The notes under the pieces: generated by a model
Database searches by the model: none
The model's input: the letters and a program-made list of their open reading frames with translations, nothing else
Told to the model about the DNA's origin: nothing
From: an uncultured Candidatus Binatia bacterium
GTDB lineage: Bacteria; Desulfobacterota; Binatia; Bin18
Assembly (NCBI GenBank): GCA_965200965.1
Contig: OZ241744.1
Location: forward strand, 1,056,001-1,120,000
Reading direction: 5' to 3'
DNA: 64,000 bases
Shown: in pieces, positions 29,044 through 38,442 of the stretch
How positions within the stretch are numbered: the stretch's first letter is position 1
Layout: each line of letters opens with the position of its first letter
Made by a program: the position numbers and the translations under genes

Positions 29044-30378
29044 ATGAACTTTGGATATTTTACTGAGCGGCCATATCGCTGGGTTGACGAGGACGAAGTG
29101 CTGGAGCATGAGGGCTTTTTTGCCATCCCGAATGCACGTTTTGACCGGGAGAAGGCGGCAGATGACTACAACCACTTCCTGGACGAGTACTGCTACGCCG
29201 AGGAAATGGGCTTTGATTCGCTGATGCTCAACGAGCACCACGGCAACCCCTTCTGCATGGGCAGCGTGATGAACGTCGAGGCGTCCATCCTGGCCCGGAT
29301 CACCAACACGGCCAAAATTGTGCTGATCGGCAACCCCCTGCCGGTCATCAAACACCCGCTGCGCATGGCCGAGGAGTTGGCCGAAATTGACCTCATCTCA
29401 CGCGGCCGGCTGGTCACCGGCTGGGTGCGGGGGGCTGGCAGCGAGCAGTTTTTCAACAACGCCAACCCGAGCTATAACCGGGAGATGTTCAACGAGGCCC
29501 ATGACTTTATTATTCAGGCCTGGACCAGACCCGGCCCGTGGCGCTACGAGGGCAAGCATTTTCACTACCGCCACGTCAACCCGTGGGCCCTGCCCTACCA
29601 GAAACCCCACCCCCAGATGTGGATTCCGGGGGTGTTGAGTCCTGAAACCGTCAGATGGGCGGCCGAACACAACTATCCCTACCTGGCCCTGGTCACGGCG
29701 CTCAGCCCGACCTGTGATCTGCTGGACTTTTACGCCGATATCGCCGCGGAGAACGGCTATCAGGCCGGGCCGGAAAACTTCGGCTACCTCATTGGCGTGT
29801 TCTGCGCCGAGACCGATGAAAAAGCCCAAGAGCTGGGCAAAGGCTTTGTGTTCGGCGGCGGGGCCAGCGCCTTTTCGCGGCCAGAACATACCCTGCCACC
29901 GGGCTACAACTCCAAGAACGCCATTCGGCTGCTGGCCAAACGCCCCAGCGGCGGTTGGGTCGGGGTGGATTCCGACCGGCTCAAAGAGGCCCAGCACGGC
30001 AAGCGCAAGTCCAAAGACCTGGACGAGGTCCGCCAAAAACTGCTCCGCTCGTACAAACGGGCCCAGGACGACTACCTGATGATCATCGGCTCGCCCAAGA
30101 CGGTGATCGAAAAGGTCAAGACCATGATGCGCGTGTTGCGGCCGGGCGCGTTCTCGTGCTTCAACGTCCAGGGGCCGGTCAGCAACGAAGACCGGCTGAC
30201 CAGCGTCCGGCTGCTGGCCCGGGAGGTCAAGCCGGTCCTTCAGGAGTACGCCAGGGAAATCGGTCTGGTTGACCCCTTCACCCGCCGGCCGGGCTCGGTC
30301 AAGCTCAATCCGGGCACCAAGCGCCTGCCGGTCGTGGACCGCACGCCGCTGAAAGACCTCGACATGCTGCCGAACTAG
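29044..30378 (+). CDS. LLM-class flavin-dependent oxidoreductase
   Basis: GFDSLMLNEHH, PLRMAEELAEIDLISRGR and PYQKPHP motifs. AAGGAG RBS. Confidence 0.92.
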   Translation: MNFGYFTERPYRWVDEDEVLEHEGFFAIPNARFDREKAADDYNHFLDEYCYAEEMGFDSLMLNEHHGNPFCMGSVMNVEASILARITNTAKIVLIGNPLPVIKHPLRMAEELAEIDLISRGRLVTGWVRGAGSEQFFNNANPSYNREMFNEAHDFIIQAWTRPGPWRYEGKHFHYRHVNPWALPYQKPHPQMWIPGVLSPETVRWAAEHNYPYLALVTALSPTCDLLDFYADIAAENGYQAGPENFGYLIGVFCAETDEKAQELGKGFVFGGGASAFSRPEHTLPPGYNSKNAIRLLAKRPSGGWVGVDSDRLKEAQHGKRKSKDLDEVRQKLLRSYKRAQDDYLMIIGSPKTVIEKVKTMMRVLRPGAFSCFNVQGPVSNEDRLTSVRLLAREVKPVLQEYAREIGLVDPFTRRPGSVKLNPGTKRLPVVDRTPLKDLDMLPN

Positions 30379-30395
30379 CGGCTGAGACGGGCAGC

Positions 30396-30434
30396 GTGGT
30401 TCATCCTTCTGCTCCAACGCTCAGGATGAACCAC
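30396..30434. terminator. 12-bp perfect inverted repeat between convergent genes (terminator or REP-like) at the RM island edge
   Basis: GTGGTTCATCCT-N15-AGGATGAACCAC. Confidence 0.55.
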
Positions 30435-30452
30435 CTTCGAGAGCGTGAGCGC

Positions 30453-31936
30453 TTATCGGGGAAGCCGCGCCGCGATGGTGGTGAACTGCTCCAGGGCGGC
30501 TTCGAGCTCGGTGGCGATTTCGGCGGCTATGCGCCCGGGCGACGGCAGGGACTCGCTGTCGGTCAGGCTGTTGTCCTTGATCCAGAACAGGTCAAGGCTC
30601 AGCTTGTCGCGGGTGAGCAGCTCGGCATAGTCGTAGCAACGCCAGCGGCCGTCCGGGCTGGCCTCGCTCCAGGTAGGGGTGCGCTGGTGGGTTCGGCCGG
30701 GCTTGTAGCAGGCCACGAAGTCGTCAAAGTCCCGGCGTTGGAGCGGTTTCTGCTTGAGCGTAAAATGGCAGTTGGTGCGTAGATCGTAGACCCACAGCCG
30801 GTCGGTCCAGGCTTGGGCCCGGCCCTCTCCCTTGTCAAAAAAGAGCACATTGGCCTTGACCCCCGGCGAGTACCAGATGCCGGTCGGCAGGCGCAGCAGC
30901 GTATGGACACGGCATTGCTCCAGCAGGCTGCGGCGCACCTTCTCGCCGGCCCCGCCCTCGAACAGCACATTGTCAGGGACGACAACCGCGGCCCGGCCAT
31001 CAATTTTCAGCAGGGTATAGATGTGCTGGACAAAGTTGAGTTGCTTGTTGCTGGTTGAGGTCCAGAAATCTTCACGGACGACCACCTGCTCTTCTTTCTC
31101 GGTGTCGCCCTCTTCGTTGACGAACAGCAGACTTTGTTTCTTGCCAAAGGGCGGGTTGCCAGGACCATTGCATACTCGCGCTTCCAGGCCGCGGCCAAGC
31201 TGTCGTGTCCGGTGTGAACGACCACCTTATCGCCGCCGATGTTGTGCAGATGGACATTCATCGCGCACATGCGGCCTACCTTGGGGGACAGCTCCATGCC
31301 CTCAACGAGGTCTTCTTGCAGGCCGCGGAGTTCATCCCGGTCCAACTCGCTTCCGTGGCGATCGAGCACATACTGATAGGCGTGGCACAGAAAGCCGCCG
31401 GTTCCGGCCGCGGGGTCGCAGATGGTGTCTTCGGGCGTCGGCTGCATGACCTCGCATATGGCCTGGATCACGGGCCGGGGGGTGAAATACTGCCCTGCCC
31501 CGCGCGATGACTCCTGGGCTGAGCGCGCCAGGAGTTCCTCATAGATCGTGCCTTTCACATCGACCGGCAGGGACAGCCAGTCCACCCGGTCCAGCAGATT
31601 AAGGATGAGCTGTTTGAGCAGCGCGGGGTTGTGGATCTCGCACCGTGACCCCTTGAAGACCACGCCGAGCATGCCCGGTTTGCTCCCCAGCTTTTCCAGG
31701 TTGGCACGGTACTGCGCTTCGAGGGCCGCCCCATCGAGCGGCAGGAGCACCTTCCAGCCCAACTCCGGCGGCACGATGGGAGCGCGCGCATAGGGCGGCT
31801 CGGTCAGCTGGTCAGCCATTTTGAGGAACAGCAGCAGGGTCAGTTGCTCAACATACTCGAAGCACGACAGCCCGGCGTCCCGCAAGACGCCGGCGTAACT
31901 CCAGGCCCGTTTGCCGATGTGCGAAGCGTCCATCAT
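30453..31936 (-). pseudogene. hsdM: Type I RM methyltransferase subunit, 1-nt frameshift at the catalytic motif
   Basis: The N-terminal part has GAGQYFTPR and DPAAGTGGF. At about 31158, CTG GC AAC CCG CCC TTT GGC AAG lacks one base before NPPFGK. The C-terminal half (NKQLNF, VVPDNVLFEGG) is in a different frame. Confidence 0.9.
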
Positions 31937-32054
31937 CTGTTGAGTTCCATGACCGTCTTCCTGCTGCGTAGTCGGTTTCGTTACCATGCGCCCTCTCGCG
32001 TCCACCCGCAAGGCTCTAGCCTGCTTGCCTGTCAAGCTGAGCCTCTGCCACACT

Positions 32055-32083
32055 TTGACACCGAGAGCGTAGAGGTCTATATC
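32055..32083 (+). promoter_or_regulatory. Sigma70-type promoter for the NYN gene
   Basis: TTGACA (32055-32060), 17-nt spacer, TATATC (32078-32083). Confidence 0.65.
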
Positions 32084-32093
32084 TTCTGCTGGT

Positions 32094-32147
32094 GCCCGTG
32101 CGCCGCTGTTTATGCTCCCCAGCGTTCGTTCTGGATGCCGGGCTTTT
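32094..32147 (+). ncRNA. Putative structured leader/small RNA upstream of the NYN gene
   Basis: Outer stem GCCCG/CGGGC, inner stem CGCTG/CAGCG, ending in TTTT; lies between the promoter and the GGAGG RBS. Confidence 0.35.
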
Positions 32148-32163
32148 CATGGGGAGGTCGCTA

Positions 32164-32772
32164 GTGGACAGGTCAGTTGTCTTTCTTGATGGTGGATATA
32201 TTGATGCTCTCCTCAAAGAGCACTTCAATGGGCAAAGAATTAATTATGAGGATTTCGTCTCGAAAATAGCGGCGGGTTCGAGCGTTGTGCGCACTTACTA
32301 CTACCATTGTCCCCCCTACCAGAGTGACCAGCCTACCGAGGAGGAGCGAGAAATGTTGTCACGAAAGAAGAAATTTTTCGATGTCCTCTCTGAATTCAGC
32401 CGCTTCCAACTGCGTCTGGGAAAGCTGGAGAAGCGGGATGAAAAGGCAGATGACAGTCCCGTCTTTGTTCAGAAGCGGGTTGACATTATGCTGGCAATTG
32501 ACATGGTGCGGCTTGCGATGACCCGTCAGATTCAGCGAGCCATTCTCGTAACTGGAGACAGCGACCTGCTGCCAGCGGTTGAAGCAACGAAACAGCTTGG
32601 CGTTGTGGTTTCACTTTGGCACGGTCCTCGTGGAGGCCAAGCCAACACTGTCCATAGAGATCTCTGGGATGCGTGCGATGATCGGGAGGAAATCAAACAG
32701 AGCTTGATCGACTCGGTGCGCCTCCAAACGGACATCCACGCCGATAGACGGACATCCGCGCCGATAGCCTGA
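32164..32772 (+). CDS. NYN/LabA ribonuclease domain protein inserted antisense in the hsd operon
   Basis: VFLDGGY, QKRVDIMLAID and LVTGDSDL motifs. GGAGG RBS then GTG at 32164. Confidence 0.9.
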   Translation: MDRSVVFLDGGYIDALLKEHFNGQRINYEDFVSKIAAGSSVVRTYYYHCPPYQSDQPTEEEREMLSRKKKFFDVLSEFSRFQLRLGKLEKRDEKADDSPVFVQKRVDIMLAIDMVRLAMTRQIQRAILVTGDSDLLPAVEATKQLGVVVSLWHGPRGGQANTVHRDLWDACDDREEIKQSLIDSVRLQTDIHADRRTSAPIA

Positions 32773-32789
32773 GTTCGTTGCATCACAGT

Positions 32790-34274
32790 TCAGACACGCC
32801 GGCGGGCTTTCCGCTCCGCGGCAATGCGCTTCAGCAGTGCCGACGCCGGCTCGTCATGCGGGTCGTGGGTGACAAGTTTGCCGCTGAAGGCGTGGCGCAG
32901 GATTGACTGGCGCAGGTGCTGCGCCGCCTTCAGCTTGGCGTCAATATCGGCCTCTAGCCGCTCCACAACCGAAAGCTGCTCTTCGACAATGGCTACTTGG
33001 GCTACTTGTTCGCTCATCGAAGGAAGTGACAGCGGCAGCCTTTTAATTTTGCTTATACTGAGCGTGTAAAGACCGCTCGTAGAACTCGCCACATTTTGAA
33101 TGGCGAGCTGTCCTGTAGGCGAGTTCAGAAAGTATCCACCATACTTCGGAATCAGGCCGTCGGCTGGGCGAACCCGAATAATGTGGTTCTGATGAATACA
33201 GTCCGGGACTTCGCCCAGCCACAATGCGCATCTGCCAATCTCAGTCCGGCTCCCATTGCCCTCCACGATAAGAATATCACCCGGATCGAGCCGAAGTTTC
33301 TCCAACTCATCCGGTGTCAACTCGAAGCGGTGTAAATTCGAGAGATCGAGCGATCCTCGATGAACGTTAGCAACTCGAAGGTAAGGATAATGATTCCTCC
33401 TAGGCGCACGAGCAGGAGATTTCTGGAGCCCTCCTTGTATGTCCCCAAGCTGATCTACCGTCGCCCAGCACTGCCCCGCCGGCAGCGGGGGCAGGCTTGC
33501 CGTATCCGGGGCCACCGGCTCTTTGTACTTGGCCTGCCAGTACTTGGGCGGCGTTTTGCCTTTTTCCGCAAATGTACGGAGCTGGTCTTGCTCCCAGCGA
33601 CGGCGGCGTTCAATGAGGGTGCGCTTGAGCAGTGCGCTGGCCGGCTCGGCGTCTGGGTGCTGCTCGCGCCAGTCCGCGGTGAGCGCGCCTTCGACCGCGG
33701 CCTTGAGCACCGAAGCGCGATAGCGTGTGAGCTTGTCGCGCGCGCGTTCCAGGGCGGCAACGCCGGTGTTGAGGCCAGCAAAGAGTTCGTCCAGGGTGTC
33801 GGCTATGCGGCGTTGTTCTGATTTTGGTGGCAGAGAAAAAGCAAACTGGCTGATCTGACTGAAATCCACACGCGGGCGATCACCTCTGCTGAGGCGGCTT
33901 GCAAAATGAACAAAATCGCTGGCATTGAGACGATACTTCAAGAACTTTCCAGATACAGCGCTCGTCTCGGGCATCACGATGAACTCACCGGAACATAACC
34001 CTCCGAAATCAGGCTGATAGACTTTGTTCAGATATGATCCAAGACGACCATAGAGCACATCTCCAACTCGGAAAACATTGGCGCTACTCTTCATCAAACC
34101 CGCTGGAGTCGTTCCAAGCAGTTTCGTGGTGTGCGCTTCAATGTGTTGCAATCCGATAAACTTGGCGCTTGGCGTAGCATGGGGGTCAGCCTTTCCTGTT
34201 CTCGGTTTGACAATTTCCCCAAGCGTCGTTTCCACCCATCCGGCCGGCAGGCGTTGTTGGTCTAGGTCGTTCAC
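32790..34274 (-). CDS. hsdS: Type I RM specificity subunit
   Basis: LPAGW...TLGEI, LPPKSEQRRI, a second TRD, and LRQSILRHAFSGKL...DEPASALL conserved regions. Confidence 0.92.
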   Translation of the reverse strand: MNDLDQQRLPAGWVETTLGEIVKPRTGKADPHATPSAKFIGLQHIEAHTTKLLGTTPAGLMKSSANVFRVGDVLYGRLGSYLNKVYQPDFGGLCSGEFIVMPETSAVSGKFLKYRLNASDFVHFASRLSRGDRPRVDFSQISQFAFSLPPKSEQRRIADTLDELFAGLNTGVAALERARDKLTRYRASVLKAAVEGALTADWREQHPDAEPASALLKRTLIERRRRWEQDQLRTFAEKGKTPPKYWQAKYKEPVAPDTASLPPLPAGQCWATVDQLGDIQGGLQKSPARAPRRNHYPYLRVANVHRGSLDLSNLHRFELTPDELEKLRLDPGDILIVEGNGSRTEIGRCALWLGEVPDCIHQNHIIRVRPADGLIPKYGGYFLNSPTGQLAIQNVASSTSGLYTLSISKIKRLPLSLPSMSEQVAQVAIVEEQLSVVERLEADIDAKLKAAQHLRQSILRHAFSGKLVTHDPHDEPASALLKRIAAERKARRRV

Positions 34275-34299
34275 GCTGCCAGCCTCTCAGTCCATTCCG

Positions 34300-34419
34300 C
34301 TAGGAGCGGTTGGGGAATACATCAATGTCACGGCATTGCAGGAGCCGGGTGTCTGCTGTCACCAGCGTGAGGCCGAAGACCTTGGCGCTCGCGGCAATAA
34401 ATCGGTCCGCCGGGTAGTG
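34300..34419 (-). pseudogene. C-terminal remnant of a VapC/PIN toxin
   Basis: Manual translation HYPADRFIAASAKVFGLTLVTADTRLL...PNRS*; the N-terminal portion is deleted. Confidence 0.75.
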
Positions 34420-34649
34420 AGCGCTTCCCAGTCGGCAGGGTCGGTGACGGGAGCGATGAGGTCGCCGTGGAGCTTGGCAGAGTCCTTCATGGCGTCGAGC
34501 CAGATCCCCGTCGGACTCGGCGGTGGAGGAAGGATGCGGGCGACCGGTTTGGCAAACCGGGTCACCGGTACCGGCTTGCGCGTTTTTGCTACTTGGTCAA
34601 GAACAGACAGGCAGGTCGCCTTGAACTTGGCTATCTGAATTTCTTGCAT
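34359..34649 (-). CDS. Phd/YefM family antitoxin (stop lost, reads into the toxin remnant)
   Basis: MQEIQIAKFKATCLSVLDQVAKTRKPVPVTRFAKPVARILP. Confidence 0.8.
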   Translation of the reverse strand: MQEIQIAKFKATCLSVLDQVAKTRKPVPVTRFAKPVARILPPPPSPTGIWLDAMKDSAKLHGDLIAPVTDPADWEALTTRRTDLLPRAPRSSASRW

Positions 34650-34771
34650 ACAGGCAATGTACCACGGCCTGAGACGATAGGCCACGATGTTGATACCTCC
34701 GTTACGCTCGCTCAGTTCCCCCCGAAGGTCGTCGTCCGCCATGACTTGGCAGTGTGCGCCAGCCGCCTTAC

Positions 34772-37612
34772 TTACGCTGCCAGCCTCTCATTGAGTTCGG
34801 CCAGGAGCGGCGTGAGGGTGTCGCCGAACAGGGCGTGGGCACGGCCCAGGCTGCCCTGTTGGCCAAACCAGCCGGTCTCAAAGTCGGCCGGCTCTATAGC
34901 CAGGCTGCTGGCGATGTGCTCGGCTATGCGGTCGAGCCAGGCGTGCTGCTCGGGGCTGAAGGCGGTGGCGGCCTCGCGCTCGGCGAGCCAGGCGCGGTAG
35001 CGCTCCCGCAGCTCATCACGGTAGGGCACAAGCGTCAGGGTCGGAAGCAGGGCGTGGCGCACCAGGCTTACCAGGTCGGCCAGTTGATCGCCGCCCCTGC
35101 CCTTGACCGCGCCCGGCTCTGCGGTCTCAAAGGCGTGCCAGAGTTGGGCCGGGGTAGCGGACAGGGGTGGGCGGGCCAGGGCGTCCCGGAGCTGGCGCAG
35201 GTCTTTGAGGGATAGCCCGAGCGGGCGGCTGCCGGCGCACAGGGCTTGCAGGGCGGTGAGTTCGTCCTTGTGCCCGTCAATCCAGGCGCGGAAGTCCTGC
35301 ACCTTGGTGCGCGCTTTTTCCACAGCGGCGGCGTCAAAGCCGGCCGACAGCACGGCGTCGATGGTGTGGCGGTCAATGGTCTGCTCGTTGTGCTGCTGGA
35401 TTTCCAGCAGGCGGCGGCGGAAGGCCGGCTTGAGAAACGGCGTGACCGCGGCACGCGCGAGTTGGCTGGCCGCCTGGTCAATCTGCTGTTGTCGTGGTTC
35501 ATCAAGCGTGAACTGCGCTTTGGCGGCCGCAATCTGCGCGTCAGGGTCGCAGGCGTTCAGCAGCTCACGCGCCAGCGTGGGCAGGGATGTACCGGCGGCG
35601 AGCGTCTGGAGTTCGGCCAGTTGGTCCGGGCTGAACTGATGCTGGAGGCGGGCCAGCCGGCCGGCCAGGGTGATGAGGGCGTCCGGGTTTGTGCCGCCCC
35701 GGGCGATATAGTCAAGAAGCTGCTTCAGGCTCCTGCTATGCCGGCGGTTGAGCGGGCGGGATTCATTCCGATCCTGCTCGCACACGCCCACCGCATCCAC
35801 GATGATAAAGCGATCCTTGACCCGGGCACTGGGACTGACGGCCCGCAGCTTGTCGGGCGAGATGACGCGCACCCCACGGCCCTTCATCTGCTCAAAGAAG
35901 CCCGCGGACCTGACGTTGCGCATGAAGAACACGCACTCAATCGGCTTGACATCGGTGCCGGTCGAGATCATGTCTACGGTAACGGCAATACGCGGATGAA
36001 AAGTGTTGCGGAAGTTGGCCAGGATTTCGTCTGGGCTGAGTTCGGAGGTGCGTTTCCATTCCAGGACTTCGGACTGGGTGCCGTCGTCATGTTGCACCGT
36101 CGAGACGATCTTGGTGAAGCCGGTGCGGTAGGTGATCTTGCGGCAAAAGGCGTTGCCCTCGGCAAAGACCTCGCGGACTATCCGCACAATGTCGTCGGCA
36201 TGGGAGTCGTCTTTGGCAAAAATCAGGGTTTTGGGCACTTCCCGACGGTCGGGGAAGGCCTCGGGCAGCACGGCATCACGGAACTGCTGCAATACGGTGC
36301 GGAGTTGACTTTCTGAGACCACGTCGCGGTCGAGCTGCTTGGCGGTATAGGTCAGGTCGTCGCTAAGCCATTCCAGCCGCTCTTTACGCGTCAGCTTGTC
36401 GCGTTTGTCCACATACACGCCGGTGTCGTCCGCAGCGACAGTCGCCCCCTGCTCTGTCACCCTGGTGCGGATGCGGTATACGTCAAAGTCCACGTTCACC
36501 CCGTCAATCACGGCCTCGTCATGGCCGTAGTGCATGACCAGATTCTGCTTGAAGAAACCGATGGTCCGGCTGGCCGGTGTGGCCGTCAGGCCAACCAGAA
36601 AAGCGTCAAAGTACAGCAGCACTTGGCTCCACAGTTCGTAGATGGAGCGGTGACACTCGTCCACAATAATACAGTCAAAGAACTCGGGCGGGAGGGCGGC
36701 GTTATACTGCACATCGGGCGGCTCCTGCCGCCAAGCCGGCCCGGCCTCAAACGCCGAGCCTTCTTCATTGTCGGCGGCGTACTCGGCCTCACCCTTGAGC
36801 ATAGAGTAGAGCCGCTGGATGGTGGTAATGACCACCTTGGCCGCGGGGTTGACTGCGTTGGTCGTCAGCCGCTGGACGGTGTACAGTTCTGGGAATGTGC
36901 GGGCGTCGTCCGGCGGCTGGAAGTTGGCGAACTCGTCGTAGGTCTGGCGGCCCAGGTTGCTGCGGTCCACCAGGAACAGCACCCGCTTTGCCCCGGCGTA
37001 TGTCAGCAGCCGGTAGACGACATTGACCGCGGTATAGGTCTTGCCCGAGCCGGTCGCCATCTGGATCAGGGCACGCGGGGCGGCGGCGGCAAAGGACTGT
37101 TCAAGATTGCGGATAGCGCGGGCCTGGACCGGCCACAGCCTGGAGTCGTCCAGTGCCGGCAGCTCTCGGAGCCGCTCCCGGAGCTGGATGGGATGGGCGA
37201 GGAGCTCGGCCAGGGTTTCGGGCCGGGGGAAGTTGAAAACCTCACGGCTGCGCGGAGCCGGATCAAGCCCGTTGGTGAAGTACGTCACCGCGCCGTTGGA
37301 CTCGAACAGGAAGGGCAAGGGCCGGCTGTAGCTCGGCAGGTCTTCATGGACACCGACGGCATACTTCTCGGATTGGGCCTCTACGCCGCTCAGCGTCCCG
37401 GTGGCCTTGGCTTCAACCGCCCCGGCGGCTTGGCAGTCGAGATAGAGCAGGTAGTCTGCCGTGCCAAAGCCCGGCTTCATGGGAAACTCGCGCACAGCAA
37501 TGCCGCGGCCGGCACTCGGGTCAAGGGCGTCTATGTCCTGCACCAGCCAGCCGGCGTCCCGCAGCGCGGCGTCAATATCACGTCGCACCTGTTGTTCGGG
37601 TATCTGGCTCAC
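34772..37612 (-). CDS. hsdR: Type I RM restriction subunit (EcoEI-like C-terminus)
   Basis: ADYLL...VEAK nuclease motif, MATGSGKT, DECHR, GLTATP, TGTDV and QMKGRG helicase motifs. Confidence 0.93.
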   Translation of the reverse strand: MSQIPEQQVRRDIDAALRDAGWLVQDIDALDPSAGRGIAVREFPMKPGFGTADYLLYLDCQAAGAVEAKATGTLSGVEAQSEKYAVGVHEDLPSYSRPLPFLFESNGAVTYFTNGLDPAPRSREVFNFPRPETLAELLAHPIQLRERLRELPALDDSRLWPVQARAIRNLEQSFAAAAPRALIQMATGSGKTYTAVNVVYRLLTYAGAKRVLFLVDRSNLGRQTYDEFANFQPPDDARTFPELYTVQRLTTNAVNPAAKVVITTIQRLYSMLKGEAEYAADNEEGSAFEAGPAWRQEPPDVQYNAALPPEFFDCIIVDECHRSIYELWSQVLLYFDAFLVGLTATPASRTIGFFKQNLVMHYGHDEAVIDGVNVDFDVYRIRTRVTEQGATVAADDTGVYVDKRDKLTRKERLEWLSDDLTYTAKQLDRDVVSESQLRTVLQQFRDAVLPEAFPDRREVPKTLIFAKDDSHADDIVRIVREVFAEGNAFCRKITYRTGFTKIVSTVQHDDGTQSEVLEWKRTSELSPDEILANFRNTFHPRIAVTVDMISTGTDVKPIECVFFMRNVRSAGFFEQMKGRGVRVISPDKLRAVSPSARVKDRFIIVDAVGVCEQDRNESRPLNRRHSRSLKQLLDYIARGGTNPDALITLAGRLARLQHQFSPDQLAELQTLAAGTSLPTLARELLNACDPDAQIAAAKAQFTLDEPRQQQIDQAASQLARAAVTPFLKPAFRRRLLEIQQHNEQTIDRHTIDAVLSAGFDAAAVEKARTKVQDFRAWIDGHKDELTALQALCAGSRPLGLSLKDLRQLRDALARPPLSATPAQLWHAFETAEPGAVKGRGGDQLADLVSLVRHALLPTLTLVPYRDELRERYRAWLAEREAATAFSPEQHAWLDRIAEHIASSLAIEPADFETGWFGQQGSLGRAHALFGDTLTPLLAELNERLAA

Positions 37613-38442
37613 CGAGGAGTGGATGTGTCGCCCTCCTCTCGACCGGATGACACATTCACTCCTTCGAGAAAATCGGCCACCGCCTCCACAAAGGCCTCCG
37701 GTTGTTCATACGGCAGCATATGGCCGGCGGCCTCAATACACATCTTTTGGGCGTGGGGGATGTGGGCCTGAAAGCGGTCGGCGTACACCGGCGGGATCAG
37801 GCGGTCGCCCGTCCCCCAGACGATCAGCGTTGGCGCACGCAGCCGGTACAGCCGCTTGGACAGCCGACGGTTGGGGATCGGGAACAGCAGCTTGCTGGCC
37901 GTGCCCATCCGCCGGGTGTTGCCGATGTAGAACTCTTTGAGCGCCTCGGGGTCGCTGAGGTCAAGCCCGCCGGTCAGCATGGCCTCGCCGGCCGCCCGGT
38001 CGTGAAACAAATACCGGGCGTACTCGTGGGGCAGGAAGGAGAACAGGTCGGGAATCGGGTACTCAGCGATCCACAGGCCGGCCGCAGCCACCAGGATCAG
38101 TTTGTCCAGGTCGTTCGGTGCCACACAGGCCATCTCGGCGGCGATCATACCGCCCATTGAGTGGCCGAGCAGGTGGGGCCGGGACAAGTCCAGCGCACCC
38201 ACCACGTCCCAGCTGTGCAGGGCAAAGTCTTGCATATCCTCCAGTGCCTCTTCGCCACTCGACTCGCCAAAGCCGGGCAGCTCGGGGGCAAAGACCTGAT
38301 AGCGCTCGGCCAGGCGGTCCAGGAAAGGCTCTTGGCCGAACAGGCCGCCAGCCCCGTGCAAAAAGACCAGCGGTGCGCCTCGGCCGGCCTCAAAGACCCG
38401 CACCCTGACCCCGGGCCGGGTCTCAATCATCCGGCTGTTCAC
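37609..38442 (-). CDS. Alpha/beta hydrolase
   Basis: FLHGAGG, GHSMGG and AGHM motifs; coupled to the upstream LLM gene. Confidence 0.9.
   Translation of the reverse strand: MNSRMIETRPGVRVRVFEAGRGAPLVFLHGAGGLFGQEPFLDRLAERYQVFAPELPGFGESSGEEALEDMQDFALHSWDVVGALDLSRPHLLGHSMGGMIAAEMACVAPNDLDKLILVAAAGLWIAEYPIPDLFSFLPHEYARYLFHDRAAGEAMLTGGLDLSDPEALKEFYIGNTRRMGTASKLLFPIPNRRLSKRLYRLRAPTLIVWGTGDRLIPPVYADRFQAHIPHAQKMCIEAAGHMLPYEQPEAFVEAVADFLEGVNVSSGREEGDTSTPR

Follow-up and report, generated by a model that had tools for sequence, protein, structure and literature searches.

The locus described here raises the question of what a structured RNA is doing beside a small nuclease gene. In the window, by which we mean the whole 64,000-nucleotide stretch of DNA that was analysed, from an uncultured Candidatus Binatia bacterium, an AT-richer NYN gene lies antisense between hsdS and hsdM of a restriction-modification (RM) system. 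This arrangement, noted in the original prediction, agrees with the open reading frame (ORF), the strands and the GC content, which is 0.516 over 32000-32499 versus about 0.58-0.70 in most flanking bins. The original prediction further proposed that a 55-nt leader fold in front of the gene might serve as an RNA antitoxin in a type III-like toxin-antitoxin (TA) module. The features of the locus, read against the sister genome G007 (same genus, about 92% identical here), are as follows.

30453 to 31936, minus strand: hsdM, context; compared with G007, a 1-bp deletion near 31157 splits the gene
32055 to 32083, plus strand: probable sigma70-type promoter TTGACA-N17-TATATC (-35 box 32055-60, -10 box 32078-83), from the sequence and the sister locus
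32088 to 32107, plus strand: possible collapsed first repeat, a 6-bp mini-hairpin (uncertain)
32111 to 32142, plus strand: conserved RNA unit, UAU-GCU-C plus hairpin, from weight matrix, covariance model (CM) and covariation
32143 to 32150, plus strand: CTTTT linker, then CAU, with which a partial further repeat begins; candidate site of processing
32151 to 32157, plus strand: Shine-Dalgarno (SD) sequence GGGGAGG; in the full leader its predicted pairing partner is CUCCCCA (32116-32122) of the 5' arm
32164 to 32772, plus strand: NYN/LabA (COG1432-type) PIN-fold nuclease gene, GTG start, 202 aa, PF01936
32728 to 32767, plus strand: 20-bp tandem duplication in the 3' end of the NYN gene, from the sequence
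32790 to 34274, minus strand: hsdS (PF01420), context
34303 to 34649, minus strand: decayed insertion of vapBC genes, lying between hsdR and hsdS and outside the NYN module (a Phd-like ORF and a 38-aa C-terminal PIN fragment)
34772 to 37612, minus strand: hsdR, context

The protein encoded by the gene belongs to the NYN/LabA family (PF01936) by its profile match, PIN-like fold and conserved aspartates. The Pfam profile search gave 63.8 bits (E=3e-17) against a cut-off of 24.2. The AlphaFold model (pLDDT 92.5) matched the fold of 2qip best, with a TM score of 0.62, followed by the MARF1 NYN (5yaa/6fdl), and a sequence search of the PDB returned no match. Aspartates D9, D107, D132 and D134 are invariant or nearly so among the homologs, and the catalytic D9, D107 and D132 are present in 155/155 translatable NYNs, a count favoured by the pattern search, which partly selects for these residues. 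Since three equivalent aspartates form the active site of a CRISPR-associated NYN RNase (10.1101/2024.04.08.588522), the window NYN would by analogy also be an RNase.

The homologs are stand-alone proteins of about 185-200 aa, and the 202 aa of the window NYN compare with 188 aa in relatives of 76-77% identity. The subfamily comprises 358 clusters at 50% identity (E<=1e-30), with neither an OST-HTH nor any other fused domain; nine longer homologs matched PF01936 alone with no intein, which is weak evidence by the tool's own note. Its distribution is patchy, with members in 4 of 55 genomes of the host family and in none of the seven other genomes of the genus. No close relative was found in the plasmid and phage collections at E 1e-15 and 1e-8, and one viral contig encodes an RNA-less homolog. 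The host genome itself carries a second NYN module (G000:C1:1045919-1046730, loci L015/L213), whose NYN is 43% identical to that of the window. About 5 kb from this paralog, at G000:C1:1040261-1041149, we observed two small ORFs, one of them with a repeated 'LRTELTAVKADVT' coiled-coil unit.

The RM operon had been regarded as a meaningful setting for the gene, a view that the neighbourhoods of the homologs did not bear out. Specifically, we examined 101 neighbour ORFs, two of them second-nearest ones and the others picked from 150 crude calls, for the most part at RNA-bearing loci; 49 had a Pfam family, mostly metabolic with a few transposases, and 52 had no Pfam match. Among the 49 annotated neighbours there was no hsd family, no protein antitoxin family and no defence enrichment. 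Linkage of the NYN family to RM or defence genes was therefore rejected, and the RM setting is incidental. A linkage to tRNAs was rejected as well, with 4 tRNAs in 60 loci and none abutting NYN.

The absence of an adjacent, co-transcribed protein antitoxin means that the NYN gene is not part of a type II VapBC system. The original statement that there is no protein antitoxin thus stands for NYN itself, but an orphan Phd-like gene lies 1.6 kb off beside a VapC fragment. We considered this Phd-like ORF as the NYN antitoxin and rejected it, since it is 1.6 kb away, stands beside its own VapC fragment and is absent in G007. The ORF matched PF02604 with E=5.8e-6, below the cut-off, and the PIN fragment matched PF01850 with E=7e-4. 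The insertion region (34270-34780), absent in G007, is bounded by a 37-bp stretch that imperfectly repeats the 3' end of hsdR. As for the RM genes, the deletion splits hsdM at its NPPF motif and hsdR looks intact; short-read contigs agree, with 0 differences over window 30939-35000, and may come from the source sample. The window RM system may be inactive or phase-variable.

The hsdS-hsdM junction serves as an insertion slot for accessory genes, including TA modules: two relatives hold a Phd+PIN pair immediately upstream of hsdM instead of NYN and a contig of another organism carries a 4.9-kb insert at this position. In the two relatives (L225:2614-7326 and L226:4873-9295) several further genes accompany the pair, among them what look like a PIN-like ORF and, next to it, one that contains an HTH.

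Upstream of the NYN gene, the promoter described earlier as near-consensus is present and its position is supported, but the final T of the -10 box is missing and the likeness to the consensus was overstated. Owing to this missing T, a promoter scanner reported 0 promoters at the window locus. Its position is nevertheless probably right, since the sister locus reads TTGACA-N17-TATGGT at the corresponding site and TTGACA-N17-TATA occurs 6 times in the whole genome. The claimed GGAGG followed by GTG was confirmed, at 32153-57 and at the start codon at 32164. The mini-hairpin at 32088..32107 is not conserved on the plus strand in the sister genome.

The 55-nt leader fold was rejected as a real element, since it is lost in the sister genome and in longer sequence context. 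Its stability was noticeable only when the sequence was trimmed to the fold itself (z=-2.4) and vanished in an 81-nt context (z=+0.6). The inner helix CGCTG/CAGCG had a pair probability of 0.00 in all four contexts that contain it. The outer helix reached 0.81 only for a transcript ending at 32150, fell to 0.00-0.14 in longer transcripts, and has two of its five pairs broken without compensation in G007. The TTTT tail is most likely an inter-repeat linker, not a terminator.

The real element was found in the upstream regions of NYN homologs, which share NAU-NNN-C-CCYGGYGUUC-loop-GGAYGYCRGG. The conserved and covarying structure that had been expected beside the homologs exists as a 32-nt unit (NAU-NNN-C plus a 10-bp hairpin), shorter than and different from the 55-nt fold. 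The comparison covered the 80 top-ranking loci out of 523 from genomes and likewise the top 80 out of 456 from metagenomes, together with the window, its paralog and one viral locus. In the window copy, the stem pairs 32118-32127 with 32133-32142 around a 5-nt loop, with one A.C mismatch; from the stem to the start codon there are 21 nt, and no separate terminator. Its weight-matrix score of 34.8 is the top of its own genome and its CM score of 35.1 bits is the only CM match there, the window copy having belonged to the training sets of both models.

Covariation confirmed the hairpin. In a set of 103 distinct copies, all five of the column pairs with the strongest covariation fell in one hairpin register, and one of these pairs comprised 55 U-A and 48 C-G with zero exceptions. 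In the 85 copies that were aligned, 18 long-loop or divergent ones being left out, 94.4% of cells were paired, and double changes numbered 120 compared with 36 after shuffling and at most 30 after sliding. On a tree of 94 NYN proteins, pair-preserving double changes numbered 12, 10 and 8 against expected values of 0.8, 1.6 and 3.2, and the best non-helix pair had 3 double changes in the same test. One pair switched 12 times on the tree, both sides together each time. G.U wobbles are common and A.C pairs rare, and therefore the RNA strand is the strand behind the promoter.

The unit is also closely tied to the NYN gene. A two-block weight matrix without pairing information (threshold score >=18) found it upstream in 101/160 NYN loci with enough upstream sequence, compared with 6/816 control windows. 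Of the 163 loci, 8 had starts that were truncated or mis-called and were set aside; among the remaining 155 translatable NYNs, 126 had an adjacent copy, as did 77/88 clusters at 70% identity, a count that takes in 10 weak and 3 by-eye calls; in 108 of the 155 the unit lies upstream. Distant NYN-like matches lacked it altogether (0/14 loci). A further 29/155 NYNs (11/88 clusters) keep the active site with no detected adjacent RNA, and in ten genomes of such RNA-less NYNs the CM found no match anywhere in nine and two weak ones in the tenth, under a model that misses long-loop variants, including the genome's paralog and three family relatives. No residues convincingly distinguished RNA-linked from RNA-less NYNs. 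No Rfam family matched the unit: searches with window positions 30000-38000 and with 8 additional loci gave no significant match, and those with 18 homolog loci gave a tRNA and nothing else. Literature searches, with the Cell 2025 AbiF paper outside their scope, returned no description of the hairpin RNA or of the NYN-RNA pairing, and the main text of PMC5737381 (its 224-motif supplement being outside scope) does not contain DUF88, NYN, LabA or COG1432. Apparently, this is an uncatalogued structured RNA dedicated to one NYN subfamily.

Typically, a promoter is followed after 9-12 nt by the unit, then by a short linker that contains a second AU, and then by a terminator, the SD sequence and NYN. 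A promoter-like site (>=9/12) was found within 40 nt in 59/100 loci, 44 of them 9-12 nt before the unit. The AU at +5..+8 past the stem occurs in 84/97 distinct sequences, compared with 30.6 after shuffling, at the same offset as between tandem copies. A separate terminator was present in 71/97 distinct sequences, whereas 13 short ones had none (the window included) and in 13 long ones none was called. The predicted pairing that occludes the SD sequence in the window, with a probability of about 0.85-0.95 for a transcript from 32090 and 0.24 from 32080, is not a general feature, since the mean stem probability stays >=0.75 in 9 of 12 other short-leader loci, where anti-SD pairing does not displace the stem.

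Loci carry one to four copies, usually one unit plus a partial repeat, and two tandem copies are often seen in close homologs. In the 14 adjacent-copy pairs, the period was 35-39 nt in 12. The longest array, upstream of the NYN at L125, has four tandem copies with a 39-nt period, three of them identical. Apical loops range from 4 to about 80 nt, most having 4-8 nt. The RNA of the paralog keeps the conserved stem, carries a structured loop insertion of ~75 nt and ends in a strong terminator, and this insertion is common to three family relatives (L210-L212). Two further arrangements were also observed. At L036:3896-4900 two NYN modules apparently stand back to back, the second of which has the RNA in two copies, then a terminator and an NYN-like start (both by eye). 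In one clade (L093, L137, L138, L140, L143, L147, L148, L152, L160 and L177), with one member named Longimicrobium, the NYNs have C-terminal tails, and the hairpin is shortened and runs straight into a U-tract; this is possibly a domesticated form.

The unit does not always precede the gene. At 17 further loci it lies downstream of NYN, on the same strand in 9 (2 by eye) and on the opposite strand in 8. The 15 downstream copies displayed in full all have TTGACA-like and TATAAT-like boxes and a terminator hairpin (by eye). They are scattered over separate parts of a quick NYN tree, used only to describe clades, and represent perhaps three events rather than 17. The near-palindromic 'divergent' copy at L159 has no clear promoter and was left out of this argument.

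Starting from the RNA instead of the protein, we searched two sets of 151 genomes and five single genomes and examined 24 further loci. Seven had NYN directly behind the RNA (5 new), one was a strong orphan (L184), and the remaining 16 were weak matches (22-28 bits) with no NYN and no evident promoter plus terminator, which we treated as chance. NYN was the only partner detected for matches with promoter-like or U-tract context, in searches some of which scored only 43 candidates per genome and were insensitive for that reason. The L184 orphan (L184:1440-1600) has a promoter and a terminator with no NYN within 1.5 kb, and lies between ORFs that we take to be cmk-like and dacA-like; its genome holds a full NYN-RNA module on another contig.

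The sister genome shows the same order of loss at the junction of interest. In G007 the NYN gene is deleted from the same hsdS-hsdM junction, and what is left there is the promoter TTGACA-17-TATGGT, the hairpin with all of its pairs intact and a terminator-like hairpin of 7 bp; no NYN family member was found in this genome (97% complete). Two close homologs have mis-called N-terminal extensions that contain the same linker followed by a longer stretch compatible with a terminator, as judged from the protein only. Given the terminator-like hairpin of G007 and the longer stretch implied by these extensions, it is probable that the terminator was lost from the window copy; what the sister lost is the nuclease. 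The window copy is thus probably eroded, with a deleted terminator, a weakened -10 box and one stem mismatch.

What, then, is the RNA doing? We consider it reasonably probable that NYN and the adjacent hairpin RNA form a type III-like TA module, in which the short RNA would hold the NYN RNase inactive. The strong association with NYN and the strong covariation support this reading, and the downstream and antisense copies point to an action independent of position. The frequent terminator, the second AU and the tandem copies give the module a type III-like anatomy, the RNA outlives NYN in G007 and L184, and in two relatives a Phd+PIN pair takes the place of NYN at the junction. Support also comes from the annotated neighbours, which hold no protein antitoxin, and from a precedent in layout, AbiF/RCd22, which has a promoter, two hairpins, a terminator and the toxin and acts in cis and in trans (10.1101/2025.04.15.648962). 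The reading is weakened by the active-site-intact NYNs with no detected RNA, and by the window copy, which has apparently lost its terminator yet keeps NYN, a state more easily explained if NYN is non-lethal. It is further weakened by the mostly metabolic neighbours, by the lack of a close plasmid or phage relative and by the distantly related HEC-09, which gave no protection against the phages tested (10.1101/2024.01.29.577857). The type III-like claim of the original prediction accordingly holds in that a conserved, covarying RNA accompanies NYN, often with its own promoter and terminator, but the hairpin is another one and the window lacks the terminator.

In such a module, the unit would be transcribed as a small RNA of ~70-90 nt, in excess over the NYN mRNA, which in the common layout would arise from terminator read-through. 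NYN would recognise the invariant stem positions of the RNA and might cut at the flanking NAU sites to release a ~35-nt unit, as ToxN does with ToxI; in the window, such cleavage would fall in the linker at 32143..32150. NAU-specific cutting is a guess, because the CRISPR-associated NYN has relaxed sequence specificity (10.1101/2024.04.08.588522). The short RNA in excess would then bind and inhibit NYN, and its loss, for example through phage transcription shut-off or loss of the locus, would free a growth-inhibiting RNase. In the window copy, the predicted occlusion of the SD sequence may keep NYN output low.

The same observations can be read without toxicity. NYN might bind the RNA in a feedback loop and be a mild enzyme of RNA turnover, tuned by an RNA that titrates it or is its own substrate, with neither addiction nor an abortive role. 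Such a loop would fit the RNA-less NYNs whose active sites are intact, the lack of a defence neighbourhood and the negative result with HEC-09, as well as section 22 of PMC5499597, which presents LabA as a clock regulator and records no nuclease study of bacterial COG1432 proteins as of 2017. An orphan RNA after NYN deletion, the patchiness within the host family (4/55 genomes) and the slot shared with a VapBC pair fit a TA module better, and we regard the feedback loop as unlikely, if worth keeping in mind. A purely cis-acting leader before NYN, either an attenuator or an SD-occluding switch and possibly also serving unrelated genes, would account for the prevailing upstream position and the predicted anti-SD pairing in the window. 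It is argued against by the downstream copies, 8 of them on the opposite strand, which have their own promoter and terminator; moreover, the anti-SD pairing is not general and NYN was the sole partner detected in the RNA-first searches (promoter-like or U-tract context), which makes the leader reading quite improbable.

It is improbable, too, that the RNA is an activating cofactor or guide, with NYN and RNA together forming the working enzyme and the variable apical loop giving specificity. Most loops have 4-8 nt, which is too short for guiding, three of the four L125 copies are identical with no spacers, and RNA-less NYNs persist. What speaks for a guide is the hypervariable loop, the structured ~75-nt insertion in the paralog and three relatives, the occurrence of tandem copies and the description of AbiF RNAs as Cas13 guide ancestors (PMC12737573). 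Finally, the sporadic insertion between unrelated genes and the 20-bp duplication at the gene end would suit a mobile, selfish cassette whose NYN cuts DNA in the manner of a homing endonuclease and whose hairpin is a DNA-level mobility signal. We judge this very improbable, since the hairpin lies behind promoter-like sequence on its own strand wherever displayed and there is no recurring target gene; the nine longer homologs without an intein add weak evidence in the same direction.

If the module is type III-like, it stands apart from the families already described. In the literature consulted, the toxins of RNA-antitoxin systems are ToxN-type, HEPN (AbiF) or a deaminase (AvcD), and PIN-domain toxins have been described with protein antitoxins. 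One close likeness is to AbiF/RCd22 (AbiFr), where a promoter, one or two hairpin motifs of ~35 nt and a terminator precede an RNase gene expressed by read-through and the antitoxin is a simple stem-loop with no pseudoknot (10.1101/2025.04.15.648962; PMC12737573). However, the module does not belong to AbiF/AbiFr, which combines a HEPN toxin with the abiF RNA motif: the toxin here is predicted to be of the PIN/NYN fold, the RNA matches neither the abiF motif RF03085 nor any other Rfam family, and it can be a separate downstream or antisense unit.

With ToxIN/CptIN/TenpIN the module shares a repeat of 35-39 nt, a fractional last repeat, in most loci a terminator between RNA and putative toxin, and a sporadic chromosomal spread (PMC3401426); one toxIN locus in that survey also has its repeats downstream. 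It is not a member of ToxIN/CptIN/TenpIN/AbiQ, defined by the ToxN fold and a pseudoknot antitoxin. The arrays there hold 1.9-5.6 repeats (PMC3401426), whereas the present module has the NYN fold and a simple hairpin, mostly as a single unit followed by a partial repeat. The features by which Blower 2012 (PMC3401426) recognised type III loci are present in part. A promoter directly before the RNA is found (59/100 loci), the window site lying ~28 nt before the unit and being imperfect. In place of tandem repeats upstream there is usually one unit and part of another, with one clear unit in the window, and the terminator between RNA and toxin occurs in 71/97 family loci, is absent in the window and is terminator-like in G007.

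Among the NYN proteins, the LabA-like group (PF01936, NYN.COG1432; 2qip; MARF1 NYN 5yaa/6fdl) shares the fold, at TM 0.62 to 2qip, and the acidic active-site residues, but section 22 of PMC5499597 describes no associated RNA. HEC-09 (PADLOC, Hma-embedded NYN) resembles the window gene as a single NYN gene inside a defence operon and by a weak profile match (E=2e-8); it differs in a weak N-terminal HTH similarity, and its account in 10.1101/2024.01.29.577857 mentions no RNA.

If confirmed, a small hairpin RNA that restrains a PIN/NYN enzyme would bring a new fold into the type III systems and give part of the large, little-studied LabA/COG1432 group a testable function; the structured hairpin itself matches no Rfam family. 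Because AbiF RNA antitoxins have been linked to the origin of Cas13 (PMC12737573), a second RNase fold with a bound, loop-tolerant and sometimes arrayed RNA would be of evolutionary and engineering interest. In its fullest form, the proposal is that this is the first PIN/NYN-fold RNase family with its own RNA antitoxin, that is, a type III TA system independent of ToxN and AbiF. It would occur in at least ten phyla, its minimal hairpin of 32 nt would be excised by the nuclease itself, could move to a separate gene on either strand and would accept loop inserts of ~75 nt, and it would offer a scaffold in which an RNA-guided PIN nuclease could be found or built. We hold this fuller claim to be evenly balanced between right and wrong. 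The named isolate genome of Caulobacter vibrioides OR37 (L054) carries the NYN-RNA module, which makes native testing possible.
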